A DNA stretch of 64,000 bases, from contig JBJMHA010000044.1 of NCBI GenBank assembly GCA_045807625.1, forward strand, positions 12,319 to 76,318. The letters are read 5' to 3'. The position numbers and the translations under genes are program-made. This DNA is from Thermoanaerobaculia bacterium. Lineage in GTDB: Bacteria; Acidobacteriota; Thermoanaerobaculia; Multivoradales; UBA5704. Positions within the stretch are counted from its first letter, which is position 1. Each line of letters opens with the position of its first letter. The notes beneath the pieces are model-generated. The model saw nothing but the letters and a program-made list of their open reading frames with translations, did no database searches and had not been told where the DNA came from. This document shows, piece after piece, positions 24,301 to 55,700 of this stretch.

Positions 24301-24740
24301 AGCACGGGGATCGCGAGCGAGGCCTGCCGGTGCACCAGTTGGAGGGGCTCGCTGTAGGTGGTGAGGTCGAAGGACGTCCTCAGCACGGCGTGGCGGCGCA
24401 CGACCTGGTCCACGGCCCGTTGCAGGAGCGCCTGCGCGAACGGGAGCGACAGGTGCCAGCTGTTGACGTTGTGGTAGGCCGGCGTCGGCTGATCCGGCGT
24501 CAGCTCCATGTGGTAGAGCATCCCGAGCTGCACCATGGACAGCGGGAACGCGTCTTCCAGCCCCGGCGGCAGCTTGGCGCGGTCTTCCTCCGCGATCATG
24601 CAGAAGGGCGGCACCTCAGGGACGGCCGGTCCGGCGGCCGGCTGAACCGGCGCGGCCTTGCGGCGCTTCTCCAGCATCAGCTCCAGCAGCCGCTGGCGCT
24701 CCGGAGACAGCGAGGAGGCTCGATCCAGGGCGCCGCTCAT
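21321..24740 (-). CDS. NRPS, one module: divergent C - A(Asx, Asn-like code) - T
   Basis: The track ORF is 21321..24902. I place the start at ATG 24740 (MSGALDRASSLSPERQRLL..) because it forms an ATGA overlap with the upstream stop (24737-24739) and the extra 54 aa are Arg/Gly junk. Motifs seen are PHPISDGWS, LAYVMYTSGSTGTPKG and FFELGGDSLL. Confidence 0.9.
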   Translation of the reverse strand: MSGALDRASSLSPERQRLLELMLEKRRKAAPVQPAAGPAVPEVPPFCMIAEEDRAKLPPGLEDAFPLSMVQLGMLYHMELTPDQPTPAYHNVNSWHLSLPFAQALLQRAVDQVVRRHAVLRTSFDLTTYSEPLQLVHRQASLAIPVLDLRGLAPETQERVIEEFIEQENRTLVDLARPPLVHFTVHRRSEERFQFTLTEPHPISDGWSTMSTLSEIAFLYSAFLRGETPLEQPPPATSYRHFIFMERKMLESAEARAFWEGKLAGCSVLTLPRWPEEFRGAAPRDSKIYYPVPREKVERLQGLAREVGVPLKSVLLASYLKVLSLLSGQRDLLTGLVFHGRPDTLDGDQVRGLFLNTLPLRFELPAGSWLDLIRSTFAAEVEMLPYRQYPIPAVQRRWGPGVLFETAFSYLHFHAIGAAVEQGKVVPARGGHSDYSVTHYKLLVTFESSAVSLGRLRLFPEFDTREIGTEQVHALCGYILRALDAMLESPEERHDARSLLSDTERHQVAVQWNETGSGYERDRCVHELFERQAARSPESLAITAGERRLTYGELNAWANRLARHLRRTGIQPEDRVGLLLERSPEMVIAILAVLKAGGAYVSLDPGYPRQRHLLVLGESGASRVLTTSRRVAGPAPDGLETLLLDELLPALAGERKDDSPPVTDPENLAYVMYTSGSTGTPKGVMVPHRGLVNYLSWCIGAYGIQAGWSAPVHSSLAFDLTLTSLFAPLLSGGTVALLPEKASGDALGRLLQEPGGDRLVKLTPAHVALLDAQIPAGQLADAARILVIGGEALRAETLAPWRRHAPNTRLFNEYGPTETVVGCTVHEVSPGTPAAGSVAIGRPIANTRVYILGRDLHLVPVGSPGELYIGGDGVARGYHRRPELTAGRFVPDPFGTEPGGRLYRTGDLARHLPDGTLEFLGRNDDQVKIRGYRIEPGEVESCLEDHAGIREAVVMARQDGPGERRLVAYVVPNDPGLKPAEVRSFLRLRLPDYMVPAVVVPLPELPLTSNGKVDRARLPAPDEGRREIDQSYLAPRSEMEQRLAAVWREVLRLERVGVSDSFFELGGDSLLLLQVYKKMQALGVKVPITDLFRYPTVGALAQRLSDGAAVPARPEPDRRGGRASDAQRQREIRQRRRSS
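21430..21640 (-). other. Peptidyl carrier (T) domain
   Basis: SFFELGGDSLL; Ser codon at 21534-21536. Confidence 0.9.
21695..23190 (-). other. Adenylation domain, hand-read code DLTKVGEVGK (Asp/Asn family, Asn-like)
   Basis: Cores TSGSTGTPKG (~22683-22740), LAFDLTLTS, LVKLTPAH, LVIGGEAL, NEYGPTETVVG and LPLTSNGKVDR. It differs at one position from the canonical Asn code DLTKLGEVGK. Confidence 0.6.
23220..24565 (-). other. Divergent condensation domain (first His of HHxxxDG replaced: PHPISDG)
   Basis: It starts EDAFPLSMVQLGMLYH (the DCL-like N-terminal motif type). The motif TEPHPISDGWS is at codons 24123-24143. A ~60-aa N-terminal extension precedes it. Confidence 0.75.
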
Positions 24741-27700
24741 CCAGCGCTCTCCTGTCCGGAGAGAGCGGCGGATGCCGCCTGCAGCCTGGCCGCGACCTCC
24801 TCGTCGGAGAGTCCTTCGAGCTCTGCGAGCAACCCTTCCAGGTCTTCGGCGGCCGTCTCCTCCCTCCCGTGCGGTGGAGACATGGTCCGCAGCAGGTCGC
24901 ACAGATCCGCGATCCGGTGTCGCTGGTACAACTGCTGGACCGTGAACTCGAAGCCCCTTTCCTTGGCCAGGGCTACCAGTCGCACACTGCGGATCGAGTC
25001 ACCACCGAGAGCGAAGAAGCTGTCGAGCACTCCGACCCGGTCGACCCCCAGCACCTCGGACCAGAGCTCGGCTAGGACGCTCTCCTCGGGTGTCCGGGGA
25101 GCCACGTAGTTGGTCTGCAGCACCGGCCGCTCGGTGCTGGGCGCGGGCAGGGCCTTGCGGTCCACCTTGCCGTTGGCGGTCAGGGGGAAGGCGTCCATGG
25201 GCACGAAGTGCGCCGGAATCATGAAGTCGGGGAGGCGCTCGGCCAGAAACCGGCGGAGGTCGTCGACGCCGGCACTGCCGCCGGTCACGATGTAGGCGAC
25301 GAGACGCCGTTCGCCGCGCTCATCCTCGCGCGCCAGCACGGCCGCCTCCCGTACCGCCGGATGGCCCGCCAGGACGCTCTCGATCTCGCCGAGCTCGATG
25401 CGGAAACCTCGCACCTTCACCTGCTGATCGTTGCGGCCGAGGTATTCCAGGTTGCCGTCCGCCAGGTACCGGACGACGTCGCCCGTTTTGTAGAGTCGCC
25501 CGCCGGGCACCGGCGCGAACGGATCGGGCACGAAGCGCTCGGCGGTGAGCTCGGGCCGCGACAGGTACCCGCGGGCCAGGCCCTCGCCGCCGATGTACAG
25601 CTCGCCGGACATGCCGAACGGCACCGGCCGCGAACGCTCGTCGAGAACGAACAGCCGCGTGTTCGCGATCGGCCGGCCGATCGGTACAGGACCGGCCGGA
25701 AGCGTGCCGGCGGGCACTTCGTAAACGCAACAGCCGACCACCGTTTCGGTGGGCCCATACTCGTTGATCAGGCGGATCTCCGGCGCGACCTGCCGCCACC
25801 AAGCGAGCCCCTCGCCGAACAGAGCCTCCCCGCCGAGCACGAGCGTCCTGGTCCCGACTGCGGCTCCGGCCGCGGCGAGATTGTGCCGCAGCAGCTCGAG
25901 GTGCGCGGGCGTGAGCTTGACCAAGCTGTAGTCCTCGCCGCCGCCGATCGCCCCGGCCAGCCGGGACAGGTCGCCATCGTCAGGGATCAGCCGTACCCGG
26001 CGCCCGGTCGCCAGGGGAGAGAAGAGGCTCGTCACCGTCAGGTCGAAGCCGAGGGGAGAGTGGACCGGCGCTCCCTGGCCCGCCGCGACCGCGTAGGCTT
26101 CCGCGCACCAGGAGAGGTAGTTCACGACGCTCCGGTGGGGCACCATCACCCCCTTGGGCCGGCCGGTCGAGCCCGAGGTGTAGATGACGTAGGCCAGGTG
26201 GTCCTCGCCGGCGCTCGCCGCCAGGTTGTCTGCGCTGCGCTGCGCGACCGCGGACCAGTCGGCATCGAGACGGAGGACCGGGACGTCGCCCGCGGGTAGG
26301 GACGCGGCCAGCGTCTCCTGCGTCAGGAGGACAGACGGACGGGCGTCTTCGACGATGAGCGCCAGCCGTTCCCGCGGATAGGTGGGATCCAGGGGCAGGT
26401 AGGCGGCCCCGCTCTTCAAGACCCCGAGCGCCCCGATCACCATCTCGGGAGTACGGTCGAGATACAGCCCGATCAGGCTCTCCGGGCCCACCCCGCGGCT
26501 GCGCAATTCGTGGGCGAGCTGATTGGCCTTCCGGTTCAGCTCGGCGTACGTTAGCCGCGCTCCGTCGGCCTCCACCGCGACGGCTGCGGGGGAGAGATCG
26601 GCCTGGCGCTCGAAGAGACGATGCACGGCGTTCGCGCCCTCCGCCCGGCCAGCGCGCGTATCGTTGAGCGTCACCACCAACTCGTGCTCTTCCTCCGTGC
26701 CCAGGATCCGCAAGTCGGCGATCGGAGCGCCGGGAGCGTCGAGCGCACTGGCGACGATTTCACGGAAGCGGAAGGCGAACGCCTGGAACGCCCTCTCCGG
26801 GAACAGTCCTTCGAGAGATTCGACACGGATGGTCAGCGCGCCATCCCGGGCGATGCACGTCAGCTTCAGGCGGCAGGGCGCGAGCGGTCCCCGCAGATCC
26901 GCGAGAGAGAGCTCCAGCTCCCGGGCTGCGCGAGCGGAGGGCCAGGGGAGGAGCTCGAAGCCGGGGGACCAGTCGCGGACCGGCGCCATGGGCTCCCAGT
27001 GCTCCTCCGGCACGAAGGAATCCTGCCCTTCGACCGTTTCGCGAACCTGCTCGTCCAGGCGGGCCACCGCTTCGGCGAAGGAGGTCGCCGTGGTGAAACG
27101 GCCCTGCACGGGGAGGGCGCTGGCGAAAGGACCCACCGAAGCGCGTAGCGGCTCGTACTTCCTGCCATCGCAGACCAGGGCGATCGCGGGCGGCGCGCTG
27201 CCCCCTCCCAGACGCGTGAGCAGGACGGTCCAGGCGGCGAGCAGGAAGGATTCCACCCCGAGCCCCGACGCTTCGATCCGGGCCGCCGTGTCGGAAGGGA
27301 GCGGCAGCTCGAAAGTGTGGACTGCCGCCGCTTCCGAGGGGCCGGTCATCGCCTCCAGGGGGAGGACGGTCCGGGATGAGGCGCCCTGGCCCTGCCAGCG
27401 TTGCTTCGCCTCCGCGGCATCCTCCGATTCGAGCAGCTCGTGCTGCCATTCCGAGAACTGGAGATACTGCACGATCTCCTCTTCACTCTCCTTCTCCGGG
27501 TGGTCGATCAACTCGGCCAGGTCGCCCAACAGGTTGCCGAAGCTCGCGGCGTCGGCCGTGAGGGCGGAGCAGGAGAGGGCGAGGACGTGCTCCCGCTCGT
27601 CCAGGCGGAACAGCGTCGCGTCGATCAACGGGCCGCGCTCGAGGTCGCAGGCGGGTTCCGGCAGGTCCGCAGACCACGGGCCCTCGATCTCTCGCCAGTT

Positions 27701-27949
27701 CACCGCCGCGTCTTCGCGGACGCTCTGGACCGGAATCCGGATTCCCGGCGTGCGGTGAAAGACAGTGCGCAGGGCCTCGTGGCGCGCCGCCGCCCGCTGC
27801 AGGGCCGTCCGCAGGGCCATGGCTTGGAGCGGGCCCCGGAGGCGGACGGCGCAGCGGGCGCGGCAGGCGTCACGGACACCCCGGGCATGCAGCAGCCAGA
27901 GCCAGCGCTGCTGCGGTGAAAGCCGGAACCCATGAATCTCGTCGGACAT
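24737..27949 (-). CDS. NRPS, one module: interface-type C-like domain - A(Asx, Asn-like code) - T
   Basis: 1070-aa track ORF with ATG 27949 (GGAG 5 nt upstream) and TGA 24737-24739. It has N-terminal FRLSPQQRWLW, SCSALTAD in place of HHxxxDG, LAYVIYTSGSTGRPKG, FFALGGDSIR and an acidic helical C-terminal tail. Confidence 0.92.
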   Translation of the reverse strand: MSDEIHGFRLSPQQRWLWLLHARGVRDACRARCAVRLRGPLQAMALRTALQRAAARHEALRTVFHRTPGIRIPVQSVREDAAVNWREIEGPWSADLPEPACDLERGPLIDATLFRLDEREHVLALSCSALTADAASFGNLLGDLAELIDHPEKESEEEIVQYLQFSEWQHELLESEDAAEAKQRWQGQGASSRTVLPLEAMTGPSEAAAVHTFELPLPSDTAARIEASGLGVESFLLAAWTVLLTRLGGGSAPPAIALVCDGRKYEPLRASVGPFASALPVQGRFTTATSFAEAVARLDEQVRETVEGQDSFVPEEHWEPMAPVRDWSPGFELLPWPSARAARELELSLADLRGPLAPCRLKLTCIARDGALTIRVESLEGLFPERAFQAFAFRFREIVASALDAPGAPIADLRILGTEEEHELVVTLNDTRAGRAEGANAVHRLFERQADLSPAAVAVEADGARLTYAELNRKANQLAHELRSRGVGPESLIGLYLDRTPEMVIGALGVLKSGAAYLPLDPTYPRERLALIVEDARPSVLLTQETLAASLPAGDVPVLRLDADWSAVAQRSADNLAASAGEDHLAYVIYTSGSTGRPKGVMVPHRSVVNYLSWCAEAYAVAAGQGAPVHSPLGFDLTVTSLFSPLATGRRVRLIPDDGDLSRLAGAIGGGEDYSLVKLTPAHLELLRHNLAAAGAAVGTRTLVLGGEALFGEGLAWWRQVAPEIRLINEYGPTETVVGCCVYEVPAGTLPAGPVPIGRPIANTRLFVLDERSRPVPFGMSGELYIGGEGLARGYLSRPELTAERFVPDPFAPVPGGRLYKTGDVVRYLADGNLEYLGRNDQQVKVRGFRIELGEIESVLAGHPAVREAAVLAREDERGERRLVAYIVTGGSAGVDDLRRFLAERLPDFMIPAHFVPMDAFPLTANGKVDRKALPAPSTERPVLQTNYVAPRTPEESVLAELWSEVLGVDRVGVLDSFFALGGDSIRSVRLVALAKERGFEFTVQQLYQRHRIADLCDLLRTMSPPHGREETAAEDLEGLLAELEGLSDEEVAARLQAASAALSGQESAG
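24890..25100 (-). other. Peptidyl carrier (T) domain
   Basis: SFFALGGDSIR; Ser codon at 24995-24997. Confidence 0.9.
25150..26640 (-). other. Adenylation domain, hand-read code DLTKVGEVGK (Asp/Asn family, Asn-like)
   Basis: Cores TSGSTGRPKG (~26141-26200), LGFDLTVTS, LVKLTPAH, LVLGGEAL, NEYGPTETVVG and FPLTANGKVDR. Confidence 0.6.
26650..27925 (-). other. C-superfamily domain lacking the catalytic His motif (interface-type, I-like)
   Basis: LSCSALTADAAS at the HHxxxDG position (codons 27551-27574). It follows the C-TauD fusion protein encoded 16 nt upstream. Confidence 0.7.
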
Positions 27950-27965: not shown

Positions 27966-30764
27966 TCAGGCCTGGAGGTCGTCGAAGCTGGTCATCTCGC
28001 CCATGGCGACGAGGATCTTGCGTTCACCGGTGAACGGGTTGCGACCGTGGGCCGTCAGCAGGTTGTCGAGCATCATGACGTCCCCCTCCTGCCAGGGGAA
28101 CGAAACCTCCAGCGAGCGGTAGGCCGCGAGGACCTCCGCCATCTCCGCATCCTCGATGACGCCTCCGTCGCCGAACCGGCACTGTCTGGGCAGCTCCTCT
28201 TGTCGGAAGACGGAGAGCAGCGACTGGCGGGTGAACGGGTCGAGGCAGGAGATGTGCCAGTGCTGGGCCTGGTTGAACCAGGACATGGCATCCGTCTTCG
28301 GATCCCGGACCACCGCCGGGCGGAAGGCATAGGTCTTCAGCCGGTCCTCATCCAGCCACTCGAACTGGAGGCGCTGCTCGGCGCAACGCCCTGCGACCTC
28401 TTCCTGCTCGTCAATCTGCAGGACCGCCCTCCAGTCCAGCCCCAGCCCCGTGCCATAGGTGCGTACGTACTGCACCTGCAGCTCGGCGAAGCGGTCGACC
28501 AGCTCGGGGCGGAGCCGCTGGTACACCTGCCGGCTGTCGACGATCGGCGTCTCGCCGCCGATCTCCGGCGCCTTGGCGCAGCAGAAGAAGATCTTCCGCG
28601 GCCAGCGATGGTTGAAGGAGTTCTCGTTGTGCCACAGGAGCTGTTGATCGGGGGGGAAGAACACCGGCGTGTAGACCTTGCCGCTCACCGACTGGCGGGG
28701 GTGCTCGCCGTTCTCGTTGAAGAGATCGGAGCAGAATGACGAGGCCAGCCGTTCGAAGGGCTCGGGCGAGTCGATGCCGAATCCCCGGAAGAGGATGCCG
28801 CCATGCCGCAGGAGGTCCGCTTCCAGGGCCTCGCGATGGCTCACCACCCAATCCACCAGATCGATGCCGGGCAGAGCGGGCCGCAGCACCAGGGGCAGGG
28901 TCTGCCCCTGAGAGAGGAGCTCGCGGATGACGACCTCGCCGCCCGGAATGGCCACCGCTTTGGGCTTCATGCTCCGGAGCTTGGAAAAGTCCGGCTGCGG
29001 GCGTCCGCCCTCTGCCTGGTGCTGTTTCTTGTCGGTTTGCATCAAGGCCTCCATCAGTTCTCCGACGTGGGCATGGGGACGGGCCGTCGCTGCCCGCATC
29101 AGACTCTCGAATTCGGAGCCGAGCCGGGCGATCGTGCCCTCGGAGAACAGGTCGGTTCGGTAGTTGGTCCAGCCCGTGAGCCCCGCCGGCAGATCCCACA
29201 GGGCCAGCGTGAGGTCGAGGTTGGCGGCTGTATTGTCCACCTCGATGGAGCTGAGCGTCAGCTCGGGGAGCTCGACCCGGCCCTCCGGTGCGTTCTGCAG
29301 GATGAGTTTGGCCTGGAACAGAGGAGGGTGGCTGAGGCTGCGCTCCACCTGGAGCCCTTCCACCAGCCGGTCGAAGGGCAGGTCCTGGTGGGAGTAGGCT
29401 TCGAGCGTCACCTGCCGGATGCGGGCCAGCAGCTCGCGGAAGGTGGGATCTCCGCTCAGGTCCACCCGCAGCACGAGCTGGTTGACGAAGAAGCCGATGA
29501 GCCCCTCCGTCTCGATCCAGTTCCGGTTCGCGACGTCGGTGCCGATCAGCATGTCCTTCTGCCCTGAACGGCGGTGCAGCAGCAGCGCGAAGACCGCCAG
29601 GAGCGCCATGAAGAGCGTCACCCCCTCACGGCGCGCCAGAGCCTTGAGCGGCTCGGCGATGGCCGCATCGAGGCTGAGACGACGCGTCGCCCCGCGAAAG
29701 CTCTGGATCTCCGGGCGCGGCCGGTCGGGGCGAAGGTCGAGCAGACCGGGAGCTCCCTGGAGCCGGCCACGCCAGTAGGAGAGCAGCCGCTCTCCCTTCT
29801 CGCGCAGCCACTCGCGCTGCCAGTGCGCGAAGTCGGTGTACTGGACGGGCAACTCCGCAAGCTCGCGACGGTTCCCGGACATGGCAGCCATGTAGAGCGC
29901 CGTGAGCTCCCGCACCAGCACGCCGAGCGACCAGCCGTCGCCGGCGATGTGGTGCAGGAGGACGATCAGCACATGCTCCCGCGACTCCATCCGCAGGAGC
30001 ATCGAACGCAGGAGAGGACCTCGGGCGAGGTCGAACGGACGCCGGGACTCCCGCGCCGTCAGGATACGGCTCTGTGCCTCGCGCTCACCCGCGCCCAGGC
30101 CGGACAGGTCGACGATAGGGAGAGGGAGGGCTCCGGGAGGACGGACCTCCACCACCGGACCTCCGTCCCGGCTGGGAAACGACGACCGCAGGATCTGGTG
30201 GCGGCGCACGACCTCGGAGAGGGCCCGCCGCAGGGACGTGACGTCGAGCCGCCCCTGCAGCCGCACGGCCAGGGGGATGTTGAAAGCCGGGCTCCCCGGC
30301 TCCAGATGATCGAGGAACCAGAGGCGTTGCTGGGCGAAGGAGAGCGGCGGCGGGATCCCCGCGGGCCGCCGCGGGATGGGCGCCACCGTTTCCAGCCCCG
30401 TGTCCCGGGTCTCGGCGATGCGAGCGGCCAGGCCGGCCACCGTCGGACCGGCGAAGAAGTCGCTCAACGAGAGGTCGGCTCCCAACGATGCGCGAAGCCG
30501 CGAAAGCACCTGGGTCGCCAGCATCGAATGGCCGCCGAGGTCAAAGAAATTATCGTTTACGCCCACCCGGTCGAGGGCCAGCACGTCGGCGACGATCCCC
30601 GTCACCAGCTCCTCGACGGAATTGCGGGAGGCGGCATAGGCCGCCGCGAGATCCGGACGGGCACGGCGTTCCCGCGCCGCAATCCGTTGGGCCAACTGCT
30701 CGGGATCCGACAGCTCGGTCGCGATCCTTTGCAGCAGGGAGGCTCGGGGACTCCTGCTCAGCAT
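27966..30764 (-). CDS. NRPS fragment with fused hydroxylase: T - C - TauD/TfdA-family Fe(II)/2OG dioxygenase domain
   Basis: 932-aa track ORF. ATG 30764 overlaps the upstream stop by 7 nt (ATGCTGA). It has FFDLGGHSML and HHIAGDGWS, then a ~340-aa TauD domain with WHNENSF and LTAHGRNPF. Confidence 0.92.
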   Translation of the reverse strand: MLSRSPRASLLQRIATELSDPEQLAQRIAARERRARPDLAAAYAASRNSVEELVTGIVADVLALDRVGVNDNFFDLGGHSMLATQVLSRLRASLGADLSLSDFFAGPTVAGLAARIAETRDTGLETVAPIPRRPAGIPPPLSFAQQRLWFLDHLEPGSPAFNIPLAVRLQGRLDVTSLRRALSEVVRRHQILRSSFPSRDGGPVVEVRPPGALPLPIVDLSGLGAGEREAQSRILTARESRRPFDLARGPLLRSMLLRMESREHVLIVLLHHIAGDGWSLGVLVRELTALYMAAMSGNRRELAELPVQYTDFAHWQREWLREKGERLLSYWRGRLQGAPGLLDLRPDRPRPEIQSFRGATRRLSLDAAIAEPLKALARREGVTLFMALLAVFALLLHRRSGQKDMLIGTDVANRNWIETEGLIGFFVNQLVLRVDLSGDPTFRELLARIRQVTLEAYSHQDLPFDRLVEGLQVERSLSHPPLFQAKLILQNAPEGRVELPELTLSSIEVDNTAANLDLTLALWDLPAGLTGWTNYRTDLFSEGTIARLGSEFESLMRAATARPHAHVGELMEALMQTDKKQHQAEGGRPQPDFSKLRSMKPKAVAIPGGEVVIRELLSQGQTLPLVLRPALPGIDLVDWVVSHREALEADLLRHGGILFRGFGIDSPEPFERLASSFCSDLFNENGEHPRQSVSGKVYTPVFFPPDQQLLWHNENSFNHRWPRKIFFCCAKAPEIGGETPIVDSRQVYQRLRPELVDRFAELQVQYVRTYGTGLGLDWRAVLQIDEQEEVAGRCAEQRLQFEWLDEDRLKTYAFRPAVVRDPKTDAMSWFNQAQHWHISCLDPFTRQSLLSVFRQEELPRQCRFGDGGVIEDAEMAEVLAAYRSLEVSFPWQEGDVMMLDNLLTAHGRNPFTGERKILVAMGEMTSFDDLQA
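27969..28990 (-). other. Integrated TauD/SyrP-like beta-hydroxylase domain
   Basis: H-x-E in WHNENSFNHRW (codons 28623-28631); distal His in LLTAHGRNPF (28047-28049); GERK. It is a paralogue of the free-standing gene 7819..8868. Confidence 0.88.
29050..30375 (-). other. Condensation (C) domain, canonical
   Basis: PLSFAQQRLWFLDHLEP; HHIAGDGWS (codons 29934-29954). Confidence 0.85.
30420..30630 (-). other. Carrier (T) domain with no cognate A domain; presumed acceptor of the FkbH-derived unit
   Basis: NFFDLGGHSML with Ser codon at 30525-30527. It lies 80 aa from the N-terminus, immediately downstream of the FkbH domain encoded on the previous polypeptide. Confidence 0.8.
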
Positions 30765-33700
30765 TGCGGAGCCTCCCCGGAGACACCAGGTCGCGCCATC
30801 CGCGGCGGCGCGAGCAGCCCCGGCGCGCCGCTCTCTTCGGCGGTCGACTCACCCTCCAGAAAACGGCGGGTGAGCCCCTCGAGGAGCCGGACCGGCAGCC
30901 GGTACGCGAACCCGTCGTCTACCGTCTCGCCAGGCTCCTCACCGAAGCTCGCGAGGAAATCCCGGGCGGGCTGGTTGCGGGCCGTGGGGACAAAAGCGAG
31001 GTCGACTCGCGAGAGCCCGCGAGCTGCCGCGATCCGGCCCAGTTCCTCCAGGACCCGGTGCTCCACGCCCCGACCCAGCACTCGGCAACTGAGCAGCAGG
31101 GTCTCGACCTCCAATGCCGCCGGAGAGGCCCCGTAGATCACAACTCCGGTGAGCCCGTAGTCGCCGAACCGATCCTGTACGCTCACGACGAGGCAGTGGC
31201 GTTCCGGCGAACGGATGATCTCCTCGATCTCGTTCTCGCTATGACGGATCGTCGTCAGGTTGAACTGGTTGGTGCGATGAGACAACTGCGCCACTCTCCT
31301 GACGTGTTGCGGCTGGAGGAAAGACACATCGACGTTAATTCTCAAATCCTTTAGGAATTCACGAAAGGAATGTGAGTTGGCCCTTAAATTTTCTCTTTCC
31401 TCATTCTGTCGATACAACTCAGTGCGGCTGCGGTCCTCATCCGTGACAGGGAGGCGGTCGAAGGCCCAGACGTTCCGCAGCAGAGCCGGGATTTCAGCCG
31501 GATCGGCGGGTAGCGCGACCACCAGGACCTCCGGGCAGGCGGCCTGAACCTCGGCGCATTCGACAGGATTGTCATCAATGAAGATGAAGGCATCGAGACC
31601 GAGCCGGAGCTCGGCGGCCAGGGCCGCGAGATTCTCCGACTTGGGACGCCAGTTCGCCCGCCAGCCGACGACATGCTGCCGGCGCAGAGGCATGTCGGCG
31701 CGGGTGTCGAAGACATCGAGCACGTCCCGCTCGTTGTTCTTGCTACAGACGCAGATCAGCATCCCGGCTTCATGCTGCGCGACCAGGAGCTCCTGCAGGG
31801 CCCGGCGCGGCGTGTCCAGCTCGACGCCCTGGGGCCCATCCTCCGCACAAATCCCTTTCCACAGCGTACCGTCGCAATCGACGGCGATGACTTTGTAGGG
31901 TGGGATCCGCAGGGCGAAGAAGCGGCGCGCCACCATCGTGGCGAGCGCGTTGAAGAACGCCGGGGTGTAAGGGATGCGCCCCAGCTCGTCGCCGTGGGGA
32001 TCGTAATACCCCAGCACGGGATAGACCGCCGCGAGCCCGGCGGAGGTCACGAGATGGACTCCGCCGGCAGCGGCGAGCTCCGCCGTCAGGAGATCCGCGG
32101 CTTCACGAGCGAGGTCGGCCGCTCCGGGCTCCGCCAGGTTGGCGGGAGAGCCTGGGCACACGAGGACCAGGAACGGCACCTTCGATCGCGAGGCGGCCGA
32201 CCGCAGGGCGCCGGCGAGGTCGAGCACGTTGCGTCGCAAATCGTCCGCGGCGAAGGGGCGGCCGCGCCCCCAGTCCTCGAAGCGGACGAGGATCACGTTG
32301 AGCCCGTCCGCGTTCCTCGCCAGGCTCCCGGCCCCCAGCAGCTCCTGGAAGACCTGGCCATAGGGTGCGAAGACGATCTCTGTATCGAACCCCAGCTCTT
32401 CCATCCAGAACCGCAGGGGCCTTTCGAGAGGCTCCGCGGTGAACGTGGCTGCGATGGCGATCTCCGGCCTGCGCTCGCGGTCCCTGGCCGCTGCGGCCTG
32501 CCGCTCCAGCCGCTCGGGCAGCGGCATTCCGGAGAGCGCTCTCTCCGGTCCCTCGGCAAGCCACGCGAGGGCCTGCTCGTAGGCATCCAATAAGAGCTCG
32601 GCGGTCTCCCCGGCGAACAGGTCTGTGCGGTATTCGAGCGAGATCTGCAGACCGCCCGCCGACTCCCAGGCCACGAGCCGGAGATCGAGCAGCGACGACC
32701 GCAGGTCGACGGGGACGAAGGCGGCGGTCAACCCCTCTCCGGCGGCGGGGCGTGGCTGCGTCTGGAGCAGGAACCCGACGTTGAAGAGCGGATTGGAACC
32801 CGAGCGGCGGTCCGGATTGACCGCCTGGACCAGCTTTTCGAACGGGCAGTCCTGGTGCGAGTAGGCATCCAGGACCGCGCTCCTCACCCGCGCCAGGAGC
32901 TCCAGACCCGATTCGTCCGCCCGGGAGCGGAGCCGCAGCGGGAGGAAGTTCATGAAGCAACCGATCAGGGGCTCGATCTCCGCCCGCATGCGGTTCGCGA
33001 TGACGGTCCCCAGGACGAGATCGTCCTGGCCGGTCCAGCGCGACAGGACCGCCTCGAAGGCCTCCAGAAGGACCATGAAGAGGGTGGCCCCAGCGCGCCG
33101 GCCCAGCTTGCGCAACCGCGCGGAGAGGTCCTCGCCGATTCGCCGGGAGCGGGCCGCGCCGCGCAGGGCCGCCCGCTCCGGCCGTGGGAAGTCGGTGGGC
33201 AGCTCGACGCGCGCGGGGGCTCCCGCGAGAGCCTCCGTCCAGTACCCGATCCGGGTGTCGAGGGCCGCGCCCTGAAGCCAGCTCCGCTCCCACCGCGCGA
33301 AGTCGGAGTATTGGACCGCGAGCTCCGGCAGCGGGGAGCGCTCGCCCAGGGAGAAGGCGCGGTAGAGGATCGCCAACTCGTCGAGCAGCAGGCTCATCGA
33401 CCAGCCGTCCGACACGATGTGATGGAGCGTGACCGAGAGGACGTGGTCCTCGGGACCCATGGCGATCAGGGCGACCCGCAACAGGGGCCCTCGCGCGAGA
33501 TCGAAGGGGCGCCGCCCCAGATCCTGCAGCAGGGCCGGCAGGAGAGCTTCCCGGCGGCCTGCCAGGACGGCGAGGAGGTCGATCCGGAAGAGCGCCGGCG
33601 GCGCGAGTGGTTGGACCACCTGCCGTGGCGTCCCGCCCTCCGAGGGGAAGCAGGTGCGCAGCACCTCGTGCCTGCGCGCGACCTCGGCCAGGCTCCGCTC

Positions 33701-36700
33701 CAACACCCGGTGGTCGAGCGGCCCCGAGAAGCGCACGGCGAGCGGCAGGTGATAAGCGCCTGCCCCGGGCTGCATCTGCTCCAGCAGCCAGAGCCTCTGC
33801 TGGGCATAGGAGAGAGGGGGATCGTCGCCGCGGCCGGCGGGTCTCAGCGGCGGTGGCGCCTGGGTTGCGGAGCGCAGGAGCCCCTCGATCTCGTCCGCCA
33901 GCTCCGCGACGGTCGGGTGCTCGAAGAGGGCGCGGACCGGGAAGTCGATCTGGAAGGCCTGCCGCAGCCGCGAGACGACCCGGATCGCCAGCAGGGAGTG
34001 GCCTCCGAGCTCGAAGAAGTCGTCCCGGGCCGCCGTGACCGGCCGCCCCAGGACCTCGCTCCAGACCATCGCCACGATCTCCTGGACCGGGCTGCGCAGC
34101 GCCGCGCCCTCACGCTCCGAAGCGGCAGGGCTCTCAGGGGTGGGCAGGGCCTTCCGGTCGATCTTGCCGTTGGGCAGGAGCGGCATTCTGGAGAGCTGGA
34201 CCACCCGGGACGGCACCATGGCTTCGGGCAGCCTGCGGCCGAGATCGGAGCGGACCTCCGCCTCGTCGAGGTCCGCGCTCCCGGCCGGCACAGCATAGGC
34301 CACGAGACGCTTGTCCCCGCCGTCGTCCGCGAGGACCACGGCCATCGCCTCGCGGACGGACGGATGCCGGAGGAGCGCGGACTCGACCTCGGAAAGCTCG
34401 ATGCGCACACCGCGGATCTTGACCTGATGGTCCGTCCGTCCGAGGAACTCGATCGCTCCGTCGGGCAGGCGCCGGGCGAGGTCTCCGGTCCGGTAGAGCC
34501 GCTGTCCCGGCTGCTCGCCGAAGGGGTCGGGGACGAACTTGTCCGCCGTGAGGTCCGGCCGGCCGGTATACCCGCGGGCCAGCCCCACCCCGCCGATGAG
34601 CAGCTCTCCGGGCACCCCGACCGGCGTGAGCTGGAAGCCGCTGTCGGCGAGGTGCACCCGGTCATTGGCGATCGGCCTGCCGATCACGACCACGGGCCTC
34701 ACGGCGTCACGCCGGCACGGCCAGTGGGTGGCATCGATGGCCGCTTCGGTGGGCCCGTAGAGGTTGTGCAGGTCCGAGCCCGCCACTCGCGCGAAGAAGC
34801 GTTCCTGGAGATGGGGCGTCAGAGCCTCCCCGCCGCAGAAGACCCGGCGCAGGGAGCGGACCTCCCGCAGCCGCGGCTCTTCGAGGAACACCTGAAGCAT
34901 CGAGGGAACGAGCTGCAGGATCGTCACCTGCTCCCGGGCGATCAGGTCCGCCAGGTAGGCGGTGTCCCGGTGTCCGTCGGGCGCGGCGACGACCAGTCGC
35001 AGGCCTGTGGTCCACGGGAGGAAGAGCTCCCAGATGGAGGCGTCGAAGCTGAACGGGGTCTTCTGGACGATCACGTCGTCCGCCTGTAGCGTCATCACCT
35101 CGTGCATCCAGAGCACGCGGTTCACGATGGCGCGATGCGGCACCATCACTCCCTTGGGCCGGCCGGTCGACCCCGACGTGAAGATGATGTACGCCAGGTG
35201 GTCGGGCTGCACGCCGGAGGACACCGGGGTGGTACGGGGGGCCGCGGGGTCCGGGGGATCGGCCTGCGGCTCCAGGACCGCGCACCCCTGCGCGGGCAGC
35301 AGCCCGCGCAGGTGGGGCTGCACGAGGAGCACCGCGGGCGCGGCGTTCTCCAGGATCGCCTCCAGCCGTTCCCGGGGATGGACGGGATCCAGGGGGACGT
35401 AGGCTCCCCCTGCTTTCAGCGTGCCGAGGAGCGCCACCATCATCTCCAGCGAGCGCTCCATGCACAGCCCGACGCGGACCTCGGGCCCGACCCCCGCGGC
35501 TCTCAGCCTTCCGGCCAGCCGGTTCGCCAGCTCATCGAGCTCGCCGTAGGTGAGGGAACGCCCCTCGAAGGTTACGGCCGGGCGGTCAGGCGCCAGCGCC
35601 GCCTGCTCCTCGAAGAGCTGATGGAGGCAGCGGGCCGGATTCAACCCGGTGGGCACGTCGTTCCACTCCACCAGGACCTGCTGGCGTTCCCCCGGTATCA
35701 GCAGGGAGAGATCGCCGACCCGTTGCTCAGGGCCCGCGACGGCGAGGCCCGACAGCACCGCTCCCAGATGCTCCAGCATGCGGAGCACCGTCGGCTCGTC
35801 GAACCGGGAGCCGTCGTACTTGATCTGGAGCCAGAGCTCGGAAGCCGGCACCGCCACCAGAGCCAACGGGTACTGGGTGTACTCGCGATGGTCGACTTCA
35901 CGGACGGCGACCGACCGCATCGCCCGGACGTTCACTTCCAGCGGGTAGTTCTCGAAGACCAGCAGCTTGTCGAAGATCACAGGCAGCGAGCTCCAGGCCT
36001 GGACCCTGGCGAGCGGCGTGTGCTCGAACTGGCTCAGCTCCGCCTGATCCATCTGCACTCCGGCGAGCCAGCGCACGACGGCGAGATCCGCGGGCACGGC
36101 GACCCGCGCCGGGAGCGTGTTGACGAAGACTCCGACCATCGAGTCGGCCCCGGGCAGCGCGCTGGGGCGCCCCGCCAGGGTCACGCCGAACACCGCCTCG
36201 GTGCTCCCACCGTAACGGGCCAGGAGCAGCGCCCAGGCGCCCTGGACGAGGGTGTTGATGGTTAGCCGGTGGCGGCGCGCGAAGCCCCGGAGCTCTTCGC
36301 TGCGCCGGAGGGACTGCCGCCCGTGCCGTTCGGCGAAATCCTTGTCGTCGGGCTCCCCGGAGTGAGGGTGGGCCTCGACCGGCAGGGAGGGGGGCGCGCC
36401 GGTTCCCTCCAGCCTGCGGCGCCAGTAGGCCTCGGCGGACGCCAGGCTCTGCCGCTGCAGCCACGCCACGTACTCCCGGTAGGGCCGCGGCGCCGGCAGC
36501 GCCGGCTCCTCACCGCGGGTGAGGGCGTTGTAGAGGGCGAAGACCTCCCGCAACAGGATCGAGTTGCTCCAGCCGTCGACCAGCAGGTGGTGGAAGCTCC
36601 AGATGAGCCGCCACTCCTCGTCGGCCACACGCAGGAGGGTGATCCGCATCAACGGGGCCCGGGAGGGCTTGAAGCCCTGTTCGCGGTCGGCCTCGCAGAG

Positions 36701-37021
36701 CTCGCGCCACCGTTGCTCCCGCTCGCGCGGCGGGAGCTCCCGCCAGTCCTCCCACCGGAAAGGCAGCCGGACCTTGCGGCCGACGACCTGGAGCGGCTCC
36801 TCCAGGCCCTCCCAGGCGAAGGCCGTGCGGAGCACCGCGTGCCGCTCGACGAGCCGCTGCCAGGAGCGCTCGAAGGCCGTCTCGTCGAGGGGACCGGCCA
36901 GGGTGCAGGTGAGCTGCTGGAAGTAGGCCCTCGAATCAGGGGCGAATAGGCAACGGAACAGCAACCCCTGCTGCAGGGGGGACAACGGATAGTAGGCCTC
37001 GATCTGCTGCTGCTCGCTCAT
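30758..37021 (-). CDS. NRPS: C(DCL-type) - A(Gln) - T - C - FkbH-like domain
   Basis: 2087-aa track ORF. ATG 37021 directly abuts the upstream TGA (TGAATG). It has YYPLSPLQQGLLF, HHLLVDGWS, LAYIIFTSGSTGRPKG, FFELGGHSLL and HHIVSDGWS. A ~570-aa FkbH/HAD-IIIC-like C-terminus follows (VIAVDCDGTLWKG, CVCSKNN, FIFIDDNP). Confidence 0.93.
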   Translation of the reverse strand: MSEQQQIEAYYPLSPLQQGLLFRCLFAPDSRAYFQQLTCTLAGPLDETAFERSWQRLVERHAVLRTAFAWEGLEEPLQVVGRKVRLPFRWEDWRELPPREREQRWRELCEADREQGFKPSRAPLMRITLLRVADEEWRLIWSFHHLLVDGWSNSILLREVFALYNALTRGEEPALPAPRPYREYVAWLQRQSLASAEAYWRRRLEGTGAPPSLPVEAHPHSGEPDDKDFAERHGRQSLRRSEELRGFARRHRLTINTLVQGAWALLLARYGGSTEAVFGVTLAGRPSALPGADSMVGVFVNTLPARVAVPADLAVVRWLAGVQMDQAELSQFEHTPLARVQAWSSLPVIFDKLLVFENYPLEVNVRAMRSVAVREVDHREYTQYPLALVAVPASELWLQIKYDGSRFDEPTVLRMLEHLGAVLSGLAVAGPEQRVGDLSLLIPGERQQVLVEWNDVPTGLNPARCLHQLFEEQAALAPDRPAVTFEGRSLTYGELDELANRLAGRLRAAGVGPEVRVGLCMERSLEMMVALLGTLKAGGAYVPLDPVHPRERLEAILENAAPAVLLVQPHLRGLLPAQGCAVLEPQADPPDPAAPRTTPVSSGVQPDHLAYIIFTSGSTGRPKGVMVPHRAIVNRVLWMHEVMTLQADDVIVQKTPFSFDASIWELFLPWTTGLRLVVAAPDGHRDTAYLADLIAREQVTILQLVPSMLQVFLEEPRLREVRSLRRVFCGGEALTPHLQERFFARVAGSDLHNLYGPTEAAIDATHWPCRRDAVRPVVVIGRPIANDRVHLADSGFQLTPVGVPGELLIGGVGLARGYTGRPDLTADKFVPDPFGEQPGQRLYRTGDLARRLPDGAIEFLGRTDHQVKIRGVRIELSEVESALLRHPSVREAMAVVLADDGGDKRLVAYAVPAGSADLDEAEVRSDLGRRLPEAMVPSRVVQLSRMPLLPNGKIDRKALPTPESPAASEREGAALRSPVQEIVAMVWSEVLGRPVTAARDDFFELGGHSLLAIRVVSRLRQAFQIDFPVRALFEHPTVAELADEIEGLLRSATQAPPPLRPAGRGDDPPLSYAQQRLWLLEQMQPGAGAYHLPLAVRFSGPLDHRVLERSLAEVARRHEVLRTCFPSEGGTPRQVVQPLAPPALFRIDLLAVLAGRREALLPALLQDLGRRPFDLARGPLLRVALIAMGPEDHVLSVTLHHIVSDGWSMSLLLDELAILYRAFSLGERSPLPELAVQYSDFARWERSWLQGAALDTRIGYWTEALAGAPARVELPTDFPRPERAALRGAARSRRIGEDLSARLRKLGRRAGATLFMVLLEAFEAVLSRWTGQDDLVLGTVIANRMRAEIEPLIGCFMNFLPLRLRSRADESGLELLARVRSAVLDAYSHQDCPFEKLVQAVNPDRRSGSNPLFNVGFLLQTQPRPAAGEGLTAAFVPVDLRSSLLDLRLVAWESAGGLQISLEYRTDLFAGETAELLLDAYEQALAWLAEGPERALSGMPLPERLERQAAAARDRERRPEIAIAATFTAEPLERPLRFWMEELGFDTEIVFAPYGQVFQELLGAGSLARNADGLNVILVRFEDWGRGRPFAADDLRRNVLDLAGALRSAASRSKVPFLVLVCPGSPANLAEPGAADLAREAADLLTAELAAAGGVHLVTSAGLAAVYPVLGYYDPHGDELGRIPYTPAFFNALATMVARRFFALRIPPYKVIAVDCDGTLWKGICAEDGPQGVELDTPRRALQELLVAQHEAGMLICVCSKNNERDVLDVFDTRADMPLRRQHVVGWRANWRPKSENLAALAAELRLGLDAFIFIDDNPVECAEVQAACPEVLVVALPADPAEIPALLRNVWAFDRLPVTDEDRSRTELYRQNEERENLRANSHSFREFLKDLRINVDVSFLQPQHVRRVAQLSHRTNQFNLTTIRHSENEIEEIIRSPERHCLVVSVQDRFGDYGLTGVVIYGASPAALEVETLLLSCRVLGRGVEHRVLEELGRIAAARGLSRVDLAFVPTARNQPARDFLASFGEEPGETVDDGFAYRLPVRLLEGLTRRFLEGESTAEESGAPGLLAPPRMARPGVSGEAPQC
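30761..32470 (-). other. FkbH-like domain (HAD-IIIC phosphatase plus acyl-loading region; glyceryl-carrier-forming family)
   Basis: HAD motif I DxDGT in VIAVDCDGTLWKG (codons 31865-31879), motif II region CVCSKNNERDV and motif IV FIFIDDNPVE. The C-terminal GNAT-like part reads LLSCRVLGRGVEHRVL. Confidence 0.85.
32510..33840 (-). other. Condensation (C) domain immediately upstream of FkbH
   Basis: PLSYAQQRLWLLEQMQP; HHIVSDGWS (codons 33404-33424). Confidence 0.85.
33890..34100 (-). other. Peptidyl carrier (T) domain
   Basis: DFFELGGHSLL; Ser codon at 33995-33997. Confidence 0.9.
34150..35640 (-). other. Adenylation domain, hand-read code DAWQFGLIDK (identical to the canonical Gln code)
   Basis: Cores TSGSTGRPKG (~35145-35200), FSFDASIWE, TILQLVPS, VFCGGEAL, NLYGPTEAAID and MPLLPNGKIDR. 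Confidence 0.7.
35690..37000 (-). other. Condensation domain, DCL-type (follows the upstream E domain)
   Basis: YYPLSPLQQGLLF N-terminal motif; HHLLVDGWS (codons 36572-36592). The preceding protein ends with an epimerase. Confidence 0.8.
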
Positions 37022-52764: not shown

Positions 52765-55700
52765 CCGTGGGATCCTCGGGCATCCCCGGCCGCGGCCGGC
52801 GCCGTTGCTCTTTCTGGCGCGCCGCCTCGCGCCGGCGGTCGGCGCGGTCCTGGCCGCGCTCGACGCCGACGGCGTCGGCGACACCTTCCCGGTCGGAGAG
52901 ATGGCGGGCGAGCGAGCTCGCGGTGGGATGCTCGAACAGCGTGACCAGCGGGATGTCCCCGCCGAGGATCTCGCGCAACTGGTTGTAGACCTGGATCATG
53001 GTGACCGAGTTGCCGCCCAGCTCGAAGAAATTGTCGTGGCGCCCCACCGTCTCGAGCTGGAGCACACGCTTCCAGACTTCCAGGATGGAGCGCTCCACGT
53101 CGTTCTCGGCGGGCAGATGGCCGCCGCCCGTGGTCTCGCCGTGGAGGTCCGGTTCGGGCAGGGCCCGCCGGTCGACCTTGCCGTTCGAGGTGAGCGGCAG
53201 GGTATCGAGGAGGAGGAAGGCGGTGGGGACCATGTAGTGGGGCAGCTTGCCGGCGAGGAAACGCCGCAGGCGCCCGCTCAGGTCCTCCCCTGCGGAGGCC
53301 GGACGCCCGGAGACGGCTGCGGGCGAGGCGGTCTCGTCGACCGGACCGGCGAGGAAGGCATGGAGGAAGCAGTGGCTCGGCTTCAGGTCGAACAGCAGGC
53401 GTAGCGGCTCGAAGTCCATCCGGCCGACAGGGCAGAGACCGATCCCCGACTCCAGCGAGGTGGTCATCAGCAACTGTCCCACGTACCCCGCTTCCAGCAG
53501 GCAGAAGTCGCGGGCCATGTCGCCGTAGACCGGCGCGATGGCATCCAGGTCGCCGACCAGGAGGAGGATCAGGCCCGCGGCGTCGGCCACCGCCCGATTC
53601 ACCGGCGAATGCGCGTCCCGGTCGATGAGCGCCCCCTCGACGAGCGGGACGAGGGCGTGTTCCGCCGGGTTGTAGTAGTAGGTGCCGGCCGGCAGGCCCT
53701 CGACGGCGCCCGGCTTGAGATGGAGATAGACCTGCACCGGATAGAGGCTGCCGGCCGACGCGTAGAGATGACCGGGCAGTCGGCGGGATGCCAGGGGGAC
53801 CTGCGCGAGCTGGAGCAGCATACCGCCCAGGCGAGAGGCGGACAGGGCCGCCGGCGAGAAGCTCCGGCGCGAGCGGCGCCGCTCGTAGGCTTCCAGGAGA
53901 TCGAAATCGCCGTTCTGCCTGGAGAAGGGGAGCAGAGGCCTGTCCGGCTCCCGCCGCAGGCTCGGCTGGCCGAGCTTGAACTCCAGGGCCTGGAGGGGAT
54001 CGAGACGCCCGCCCTCCGCCTGGCCTTCCGGAGGCGGGAGAGGCGCGGGCGCCGGGGGCGCCGGTCCGGCGGCCCGGGATGGCGGCTCCGGATGGCGCTC
54101 GGGGACGACATAGGCCACGAGCCGTCGGCTCGTCCCGCTGCCCACTGGATTGACCACCGCGGTGCGCACGTCCGGATGCTGCAGCAGCGCCGACTCGATC
54201 TCTCCCAACTCGATCCGGTGGCCTTGGACCTTGACCTGGAAGTCCTCGCGCCCCAGGAACTCGATGTCGCCGCTCGGCAGGTAACGCCCGAGGTCGCCGG
54301 TGCGGTACAGCCGCTCGCCGGTAGCCGGATGGGTGATGAAGCTGCGGGCCGTCTTTTCCGGATCGCGCCAATACCCCTTGGCGAGACCGATGCCGCCGAT
54401 GTACAGCTCGCCGGGGACCCAGGTGGGCGACGGATCGAGCCTCTCGTCGAGCACGTGGAAGGTCTGGTTCACCATCGCCTTGCCGTAGGGGATGCTCCGC
54501 CAACTCGGATCGACCTCCCCGATCGGGTAGAGGATCGACCAGATCGAGGCCTCGGTGGCCCCGCCCAGGCTCCGCACGCAGATGTCGGGCGCCAGGGTCC
54601 GGATGCGTGCCGGCAGCCCCACCGGGATCCAGTCGCCGCTTATCATGACCAGCCGCAGCGAGGGAGGCATGGGCCGCCCGCAGCCCTCCAGGTACTCGAC
54701 CAGCATCTCCATCAGGGCCGGCACCGTGTTCCAGACCGTCACCCGGTGGTCGAGCAGCAACCGCTCCCAGCGCGAGGGGTCGCGGCGCTCCCCTGGATCG
54801 GGCAGCACCAGGGCTCCGCCGGCGGCGAGCAGCCCGAAGATGTCGTAGACGGAGAGGTCGAAGTTCAGGGCCGAGAGCCCCAGCACCCGGTCCTCCTCAC
54901 CGATGGCGAAGCGCTCGTTGAGGTCGACGAGAGTATTGAGCGCGCCGCGGTGGTCGGTCATCACGCCTTTCGGGACGCCGGTCGATCCGGAGGTGAAGAT
55001 CACATAGGCGAGATCCTCCGGATCCTGCGGCGGCTGCGGGGCATGGGCCACGGGCGCCGCGGGCGGCGCCGGGTCGACGGCGATCCGCCGGACCTCCTCG
55101 GGCCACTCCAGCTCGGCGTCGAAACGCGGTTGGGTGATGGCGACCTCCACCTCGCCCTGGCGCAGGAGGTACCAGAGCCGCTCCTGCGGCAGCTCGGCAT
55201 CGATCGGCAGGTAGGCGCCGCCCGCGCGCAGGATGGCGAATACGGCGACGGTCTGCTCCCAGCCCTTTTCCATCACCACGCCCACCAGGCGGTTCGGCCG
55301 CGTGCCGAGGGCGCGGAGGGTCTGCGCCAGGGCCTCGGCCCGCTGGTCGAGCTCGCCGTAGGTCAGCACCCGCTCGCCGCAGATCACGGCGATCCGATCG
55401 GGATTGCGGCGGACCTGATCCGCGAACGGCTCGTGGAGCAGGCCGGGCGGGATGGGCGCCGCGGTGTCGTTCGCGGCGTTGCGCGGCGCGAGCTGGCTCC
55501 CGGTCACTAGGCGGAACGACCGTTCCTGCCAGCCGTCGCCGTCGGCGAGGCGGCCCAGGAACGCCTGATAGGCCTCGAACATCTCGTCCAGGTAACCCGG
55601 TGGGAAGACCTCCTCGACCGCGTCCCAGTTCAGCACCAGACTGCCCTGGCGCTCGGCGGCCTGGTGGTCCAGCAGCACCTGCGGGGTTTGGGAAACGCCG

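Follow-up and report, generated by a model that had tools for sequence, protein, structure and literature searches.

The closest described counterpart of the module considered here belongs to the cystomanamide nonribosomal peptide synthetase (NRPS) line of Cystobacter fuscus, which is tabulated as (C-A-PCP-E)1-(C-C-A-PCP)2-(C-A-PCP-E)3-(C-FkbH-PCP)4-(C-A-PCP-E-TE)5 and leads to Asn-Asn-Phe-GA-Tyr (PMC9581180, Table 2, citing Etzbach 2014; also PMC8949500). In this notation, C, A, PCP (or T), E and TE stand for condensation, adenylation, carrier, epimerization and thioesterase domains, and GA stands for glyceric acid. For vioprolide, an ester-bond-forming C domain is cited as joining glycerate to a fatty acid (PMC8949500; also PMC12397197). 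The vioprolide FkbH domain is cited as biochemically characterised (PMC8949500, PMC10099666, PMC12397197), with D-3-phosphoglycerate given as its substrate in one of these accounts (PMC10099666). Corramycin assembly employs a FAAL-ACP-C-HAD(FkbH)-T arrangement in module 2 of ComK (PMC10099666), where ACP is an acyl carrier protein. Polyketide pathways as a rule have FkbH and the ACP on two proteins (PMC7489565). A stretch of 64,000 nucleotides from contig JBJMHA010000044.1 of a Thermoanaerobaculia bacterium (hereafter the window; G+C ~70%) carries two adjoining NRPS genes, O4 and O5, that together probably encode a glycerate-incorporating extension module of the cystomanamide/vioprolide type, with its domains on two separate polypeptides.

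One NRPS/polyketide synthase (PKS) assembly line fills nearly the whole window on the minus strand, to which all window coordinates given below refer, from a thioesterase end near 600–1500 to beyond position 64000. The line was read from domain hidden Markov models built on Pfam-delimited domains, from Pfam for the leftover stretches and from alignment-anchored Stachelhaus codes. O4 (30758..37021) is a 2087-aa protein with the order C(DCL-like)-A(Gln)-T-C-FkbH, as assigned from the open reading frame list, Pfam, NCBIfam, the domain models and the A-domain code. O5 (27966..30764) is a 932-aa protein with the order T-C-TauD (Pfam PP-binding 53–116, Condensation 140–570, TauD 633–920). The module in question is composed of a C domain (O4 aa 1069–1508) and an FkbH domain (aa 1509–2087), followed by a T domain on the next protein; the module lacks an A domain, whose position FkbH occupies. 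The flanking A domains carry the codes DAWQFGLIDK (Gln, O4) and DLTKVGEVGK (Asn/Asx-like, O6). With at least eight modules upstream, seven downstream and a thioesterase at the end, the line comprises at least 16 modules. A preliminary description of this DNA had placed the C-FkbH pair in the middle of the line, and the domain order of the whole line agrees with that placement.

No Pfam family matches the last ~580 aa of O4 (30761–32500). This silence does not indicate the absence of a domain; it is a gap in the library, since NCBIfam identifies FkbH in the same stretch. The TIGR01686 FkbH profile is matched with 304.9 bits (cut-off 146.65, E 6.4e-91) over profile positions 3–319 of 323, and the TIGR01681 HAD-IIIC profile with 56.8 bits (cut-off 35.75). 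Both families that had been suggested for 30761..32470 are thus found above their curated cut-offs. The stretch may be considered in terms of three parts. An N-terminal α/β subdomain (31907..32497, O4 aa ~1509–1705) is modeled by AlphaFold2 with a predicted local distance difference test score (pLDDT) above 90, aligns with the N-terminal part of 3slr and contains an IAxAATFTAEP stretch that is conserved in both homologue alignments. The HAD-IIIC phosphatase core (31466..31903) is supported by TIGR01681, TIGR01686 and a phmmer match to 3slr (1.8e-19). The GNAT-like C-terminal subdomain (30851..31348) is recognised from Foldseek matches to GNAT folds and holds Cys1979 in the sequence LLLSCRVLGR (31061–31099).

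The motifs DCDGT (31865–31879), CVCSKNN (31733–31753) and FIFIDDNP (31565–31588) lie exactly where the preliminary description had put them. In alignments of 16 and 35 homologues, HAD motifs I–IV are intact (D1715-C-D1717-G-T1719, S1760-K-N, K1794 and D1816-D1817) and either invariant or at least 90% conserved. Loss of the catalytic Asp residues was considered in the same alignments, and both aspartates of DxDGT are kept. The Ser-Cys-Arg triplet that includes Cys1979 is invariant in 35 of 35 sequences; in OzmB, a conserved Cys reportedly carries the glyceryl intermediate. The AlphaFold2 model of the whole domain has a pLDDT of 88.3 and a pTM of 0.79. When it was searched with Foldseek, its first 355 columns matched 3slr, the N-terminal and HAD part of Bacteroides BF1531 (E 6e-20), and its C-terminal 160 residues matched many GNAT acetyltransferases (E ~1e-6 to 3e-6, TM ~0.7), consistent with the GNAT-like end that had been proposed. 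By profile, motif and predicted fold, the C-terminal domain of O4 is an FkbH domain with its catalytic residues intact.

The carrier that this domain would require is found at the beginning of the next protein. The A-less T domain of O5 (30417..30605, aa 53–116; PF00550, E 2.9e-15) has an LGGHSM motif with the phosphopantetheine Ser80 at 30525–30527, and it is the sole carrier in the window without an A or acyltransferase (AT) domain in its own module, as had been noted previously. The two genes meet in an ATGCTGA overlap (30758..30764), also as described before, in which the TGA of O4 lies on the ATG of O5 within a low-complexity FkbH-T linker. The junction reads ...CGCAATGCTGAGC... and presents a GGGGAGG Shine-Dalgarno-like run ~8 nt upstream of the O5 start, and the O5 reading frame has a stop 29 codons before its ATG. 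When O4(C-FkbH) and O5(T-C) are concatenated, they align with P0001, a one-piece C-FkbH-T-C protein, in a single high-scoring segment pair (residues 10–1617, 44% identity); P0002–P0004 are likewise colinear. The alignment across the junction shows that the split falls in the unconserved, low-complexity linker. The first conserved element of O5 is a helix, RIATELSDPEQLAQRI, which has an equivalent position in the cis-fused homologues. This pre-T helix, LLQRIATELSDPEQLAQRIAARE (30660..30740, O5 aa ~9–35), is common to the FkbH-T linkers of part of these homologues. Expressed as a strict regular expression, the helix pattern is only partly diagnostic: it precedes 19 of 58 FkbH-linked T domains and none of the 63 A-linked ones, and the split partner at locus L001 has it too. 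Because of the colinearity with fused homologues, the shared pre-T helix and the lack of any other A-less carrier in the window, the sequence evidence points to the O5 T domain as the cognate carrier of the O4 FkbH domain.

The frequency of such modules was assessed among the best 120 protein matches to the C-FkbH didomain, to which all database counts refer. FkbH is present in 81 of these (35–53% identity) and is paired with a preceding C domain in 74. The architectures of the 81 proteins comprise 24 C-FkbH-T-TE, 17 that end after a complete FkbH, 14 C-FkbH-T, 13 C-FkbH-T-C..., seven FkbH-T-C-A starters and six partial proteins cut within FkbH; several of the 81 read A-T-C-FkbH. The homologues come from Acidobacteriota, Chloroflexota, Verrucomicrobiota, Cyanobacteria, Proteobacteria and others, with the best C-FkbH matches from Acidobacteriaceae, Bryobacterales and Terriglobales. 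The preliminary description held that the FkbH domains of NRPS lines are chiefly found at the start or close to it. This does not agree with the position of the cystomanamide module, the fourth of five, with the 13 proteins that continue past the carrier, or with those of the A-T-C-FkbH type. It also regarded the separation of FkbH from its carrier as unusual, which is not upheld either, given the 17 proteins that end after FkbH and the free-standing FkbH proteins that are normal in polyketide pathways (PMC7489565). Two of the splits were confirmed in their gene context: L001 reads A-T-C-FkbH / outer-membrane protein gene / T-C-A-T-C / TauD / NRPS, and L002 reads ...C-FkbH / T-TE. A fused mid-line module is seen in L003, an Anaerolineales metagenome-assembled genome (MAG), with the order ...C-A-T / C-FkbH-T-C-A-T-C-A-T.

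Where the glycerate module is broken varies between organisms. In L083 (9200–12447) the break lies between C and FkbH (C / FkbH-T-C-A...), and the FkbH domain there covers only positions 3–362 of 579 in a profile made from the window FkbH. In L001 (15266–18367) a TonB-dependent-receptor-like outer-membrane protein gene is inserted between the C-FkbH and T-C-A-T-C genes. No close genome was found in the searched collections, where the best identity was ~52% and an exact look-up of O5 was negative, and none of the database homologues and loci offered a syntenic copy of the whole line. In a scan of genome contigs, most of the 80 loci are ordinary NRPS, drawn in by the generic C-domain pattern QY[AS]D[YF]AxW[QE]; Cystobacter fuscus and C. 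violaceus were not among these 80.

The C domain that precedes FkbH (32498..33817, O4 aa 1069–1508; PF00668, E 3.6e-96 for 32501–33901) has an intact HHxxxDG motif, HHIVSDGWS at 33398–33424, and is the canonical domain directly before FkbH that the preliminary description had recognised. Its relationships were explored with a neighbor-joining tree of 174 near-full-length C domains, composed of 15 from the window and 159 best database matches, among them, as controls, the ordinary C-A domains nearest in sequence; the proven ester formers VioA, Ctm, SgcC5 and Fum14 stand outside this set, with the Ctm and Vio sequences left out because the contig scan did not return their two Cystobacter hosts. 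The window domain falls in a clade of 60 leaves that holds 59 of the 69 C domains situated directly before FkbH, and this exact split is recovered in 117 of 200 bootstrap replicates. The only leaf that was not first labelled as pre-FkbH is the C-terminal C domain of P0117. Since the gene that follows P0117 in L083 starts with FkbH-T-C-A, all 60 members are FkbH-associated and P0117 served as an unplanned blind test. The remaining 10 of the 69 pre-FkbH domains fall elsewhere, including all five with the architecture FAAL-ACP-C-FkbH (P0017, P0026, P0033, P0069 and P0073), and monophyly of all pre-FkbH C domains was rejected.

The clade has its own signature at 11 core-motif positions, represented by IGCFMNFLPLR, HQDCPFEK, PLFN and LDLR as opposed to the usual IGxFVNT, HQDxPFE, PLFQ and FDL. 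The window domain reads IGCFMNFLPLR, HQDCPFEK, PLFNV and LDLRL and carries nine of the 11 signature residues. Since all members of the clade are associated with FkbH and share this signature, the tree supports a C domain that is specialised for a glyceryl-S-T acceptor and a peptidyl donor and that is presumably ester-forming.

From the domain identities, intact residues, colinearity and FkbH-coupled C clade described above, the nature of the substrate and the formation and timing of the ester bond may be inferred as follows. Since the domain belongs to the FkbH family and retains its catalytic residues, it would take a phosphorylated glycerate, either D-1,3-bisphosphoglycerate, as do OzmB and FkbH, or D-3-phosphoglycerate, as the vioprolide domain reportedly does. 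The DxDGT aspartates would dephosphorylate the substrate, and Cys1979 would hold the glyceryl group until its transfer to the phosphopantetheine arm on the T domain of O5. The upstream C domain of O4 would then take the Gln-terminated chain off the T domain of O4 and attach it to a hydroxyl of glyceryl-S-T, giving an ester (depsi) bond. The downstream C domain of O5 (29028..30347, Pfam; HHIAGDGWS) is an ordinary LCL-like domain whose nearest tree neighbours are of the ordinary C-A type, and it would condense the glyceryl thioester with (β-hydroxy)Asn on O6 to give an amide. O6 (24737..27949) has the order interface-A(Asn-like)-T, where the interface is a C-like, non-catalytic domain without HHxxxDG (Pfam partial Condensation 10–309, then A and T), and would be the acceptor module after glycerate. 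Its Asn is probably β-hydroxylated by the TauD domain fused to O5 together with this interface domain. The functional reading in the preliminary description, in which FkbH loads a glycerate-derived unit onto the T domain of the next protein, the C domain acylates a hydroxyl and the unit comes to lie between Gln and Asx, is supported within the reach of sequence evidence.

Other explanations for the arrangement of O4 and O5 deserve consideration. The boundary between FkbH and T might be a sequencing or assembly frameshift, in which case the true protein would be a fused C-A-T-C-FkbH-T-C-TauD; the O4 and O5 frames are one nucleotide apart, and the closest homologues are fused. The exact ATGCTGA overlap with the GGGGAGG run upstream is, however, a classic arrangement for translational coupling, the O5 frame is closed by a stop ahead of its ATG, and splits after FkbH have arisen independently in L001, L002 and ~15 other database proteins. 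A frameshift artefact at 30758–30764 is therefore judged very unlikely on the overlap, the ribosome-binding site and the upstream stop, and gene fission with translational coupling is favoured over such an error. These features argue for a real split, translationally coupled, that would leave the chemistry unchanged.

The chemistry itself could be different if FkbH were a relic or were skipped, with the A-less T domain loaded in trans by an A domain of the cluster, for instance the Asn-type one in O6 or in O7. NRPS systems are known in which A-less modules are loaded in trans, and three Asn-type A domains are located nearby. Against such loading stand the complete set of FkbH catalytic residues in a high-confidence AlphaFold2 model, the pre-T helix that the O5 T domain shares with some FkbH-linked and with no A-linked carriers, its colinearity with cis-fused homologues, and the placement of the upstream C domain in the FkbH-coupled clade; this is held to be the least probable of the alternatives. 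An FkbH domain that is active could, on the other hand, supply a unit that is transformed before extension, so that glyceryl-S-T is oxidised (to hydroxymalonyl or 2-hydroxy-3-oxopropionyl), aminated to a Ser- or Dap-like unit or dehydrated, and no simple glycerate ester results. Glyceryl-ACP in polyketide pathways is routinely oxidised by partner dehydrogenases (PMC7489565), C-methylation of the glycerate unit has been proposed in corramycin (PMC10099666), and tailoring genes may lie in the part of the cluster beyond 64000. Within the 64 kb, however, the NRPS genes are neither interrupted nor flanked by a gene for a dehydrogenase, aminotransferase or methyltransferase, the TauD hydroxylases being the only trans enzymes seen, and a dedicated C-domain clade that is tightly coupled to FkbH fits direct use of glyceryl-S-T. 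A transformed unit is considered unlikely.

Several points weigh against the assignment of a split, ester-forming glycerate module. The bootstrap support for the exact C-domain clade is moderate. Its link to proven ester formers is an indirect one, as the VioA and Ctm C domains are left out of the tree, and the vioprolide-like C domains of the FAAL-ACP-C-FkbH type sit outside the clade. The module is predicted here from genes and models, and the cluster continues past 64000, where tailoring enzymes that act on glyceryl-S-T may be encoded.

Compared to the characterised systems, the module most resembles module 4 of the cystomanamide line as it has been described, with a mid-line C-FkbH-carrier order, no A domain and glyceric acid, as predicted for the window, between two amino acids. 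The two lines are also alike in being hybrids with a PKS part and, as tabulated, in the 'C-C-A-PCP' β-hydroxy-Asn module of cystomanamide, which recalls the C / interface-A-T order found here. They differ in that the cystomanamide carrier is tabulated in the same module, with no split reported in those descriptions; in its five NRPS modules as opposed to at least 16 modules here; and in the flanking residues, Phe and Tyr rather than Gln and Asn, the likeness being one of described architecture. Vioprolide VioA and corramycin ComK, from what is described of them, share with the window a C domain directly upstream of FkbH and, as predicted for the window, an ester to T-bound glycerate. Their module, however, is at the start of the line with a fatty acyl-ACP as donor, whereas the donor in the window would be a peptidyl-T, and C domains of the same architecture lie outside the window clade. 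The polyketide pairs FkbH/FkbJ, OzmB/OzmE, Mad7/Mad8 and Mad14/Mad12 have in common with the window the TIGR01686 family, the conversion of 1,3-bisphosphoglycerate to glyceryl-S-carrier, which is a prediction for the window, and a carrier on a separate polypeptide (PMC7489565). In contrast, the glyceryl-ACP of these free-standing pairs feeds tetronate or methoxymalonyl-ACP formation, with no fused C domain and no NRPS C acceptor role.

The uncharacterised metagenome and MAG proteins of the C-FkbH(-T) type (P0001–P0077; L001, L002, L003 and L083) are 45–52% identical to the window across the didomain, share its C clade and include split variants, and L001 repeats a window-like order of A-T-C-FkbH / T-C-A-T-C / TauD / NRPS. 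None is closer than ~52%, and their commonest form is the terminal C-FkbH-T-TE (24 of 81) while that of the window is mid-line. Since a mid-line position and a carrier in trans are each directly precedented and frequent among database sequences, the window module is a fresh example and not a novel mechanism. The hybrid line itself is large and otherwise undescribed.

The neighbour downstream of the module, O6, fits an Asx β-hydroxylation module of the interface/TauD type: it combines a motif-less C-like domain and an Asx-type A domain with the TauD-type β-hydroxylase at the C-terminus of O5 (28005..28868; PF02668, E 2.3e-45). Three such N-terminal C-like domains are present in the line. They are located in O6 (aa 8–421, 26687–27928, ahead of the A domain with the code DLTKVGEVGK), O3 (aa 20–434, 40238–41482) and O10 (aa 14–428, 6511–7755), all without HHxxxDG; the three domains read 'CSALTADAAS' (in O6), 'LPALCADLLS' and 'LPVLCADEWT' in its place. 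Each stands ahead of an Asn- or Asp-type A domain, and the preceding protein terminates in C, C-TauD, or C accompanied by a stand-alone TauD gene. The arrangement of interface domain and Asp/Asn β-hydroxylase in siderophore NRPS, and likewise the cystomanamide 'C-C-A-PCP' module, is matched by these modules. Only two TauD enzymes are visible, the domain on O5 and the stand-alone O9 (7819–8868), for three interface-type modules and a possible fourth in O2. The latter is a partial C-like domain (O2 aa 2354–2682, 44839–45825) between a full C domain (HHILMDA) and the Thr A domain (DFWNIGMVHK), and it may be another interface-type domain, on a Thr module.

The C domain of O7 (23220–24551, aa 118–561) is very divergent, with a neighbor-joining distance of at least 0.8 to all 173 others and 'EPHPISDGWS' in place of HHxxxDG. 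It sits right after the β-hydroxy-Asn module, and it could be specialised, for example for dehydrating or handling modified amino acids. The annotated GTG start of O7 (24902) overlaps O6 by 165 nt, and the true start is probably further downstream.

The remaining proteins of the line are given here in domain order. O1x reads ...A-T / C-A-T / C-A-T / Cy-like-A(Cys, nitroreductase/Ox insert)-T, where Cy is a heterocyclization domain and Ox an oxidase. Inside the last A domain (Cys, DLYNMSLIWK) of 52757..63754 lies a nitroreductase-family (flavin mononucleotide oxidase) insert of ~275 aa at 53231–54133. With a partial Cy-like C domain before the A domain that bears this insert, the Cys module of 52757..63754 is a predicted thiazole-forming Cy-A(Ox)-T module. 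O2 reads KS-AT-KR-DH-ACP-C-(partial C)-A(Thr)-T-C, where KS, KR and DH are ketosynthase, ketoreductase and dehydratase domains. In this first PKS module (47635–49284, O2 aa 1201–1750), Pfam places KR ahead of DH, the reverse of the usual DH-KR order. O3 reads interface-A(Asn)-T-E, O7 reads C-A(Asn)-T, O8 reads KS-AT-KR-ACP-C-A-T-C-A-T-C and O10 reads interface-A(Asp)-T-C-A(Asp)-T-TE. Directly downstream of the thioesterase, a gene at ~1–590 encodes the N-terminus of an FtsX/MacB-type (ADOP-like) permease, a possible exporter. Permeases of this type are very common in Acidobacteriota, and this, with the families of the best C-FkbH matches, hints that the line is of acidobacterial or similar origin.

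An annotation of this line should join the Pfam-blank domain behind the C domain to the A-less T domain in a single glycerate module, which would give the predicted product a base-labile depsi bond between Gln and β-hydroxy-Asn. C-FkbH modules are far more frequent, and their positions more varied (starter, mid-line, terminal and split), than would be expected from the three characterised myxobacterial cases. A wider proposal may be put forward with evenly balanced confidence: that the peptidyl-donor C domains before FkbH form a dedicated, sequence-recognisable clade across at least Acidobacteriota, Chloroflexota, Verrucomicrobiota, Cyanobacteria and Proteobacteria, and that the window encodes an undescribed hybrid of at least 16 modules whose product would contain a thiazole, several β-hydroxy-Asn/Asp residues and a mid-chain glycerate ester. 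If all members of the clade form peptidyl-to-glycerate esters, the signature would be usable for genome mining of depsipeptides with mid-chain or C-terminal glycerate. Thus, the C-domain signature could serve to predict ester formation, and it may be regarded as the most useful by-product of this analysis.

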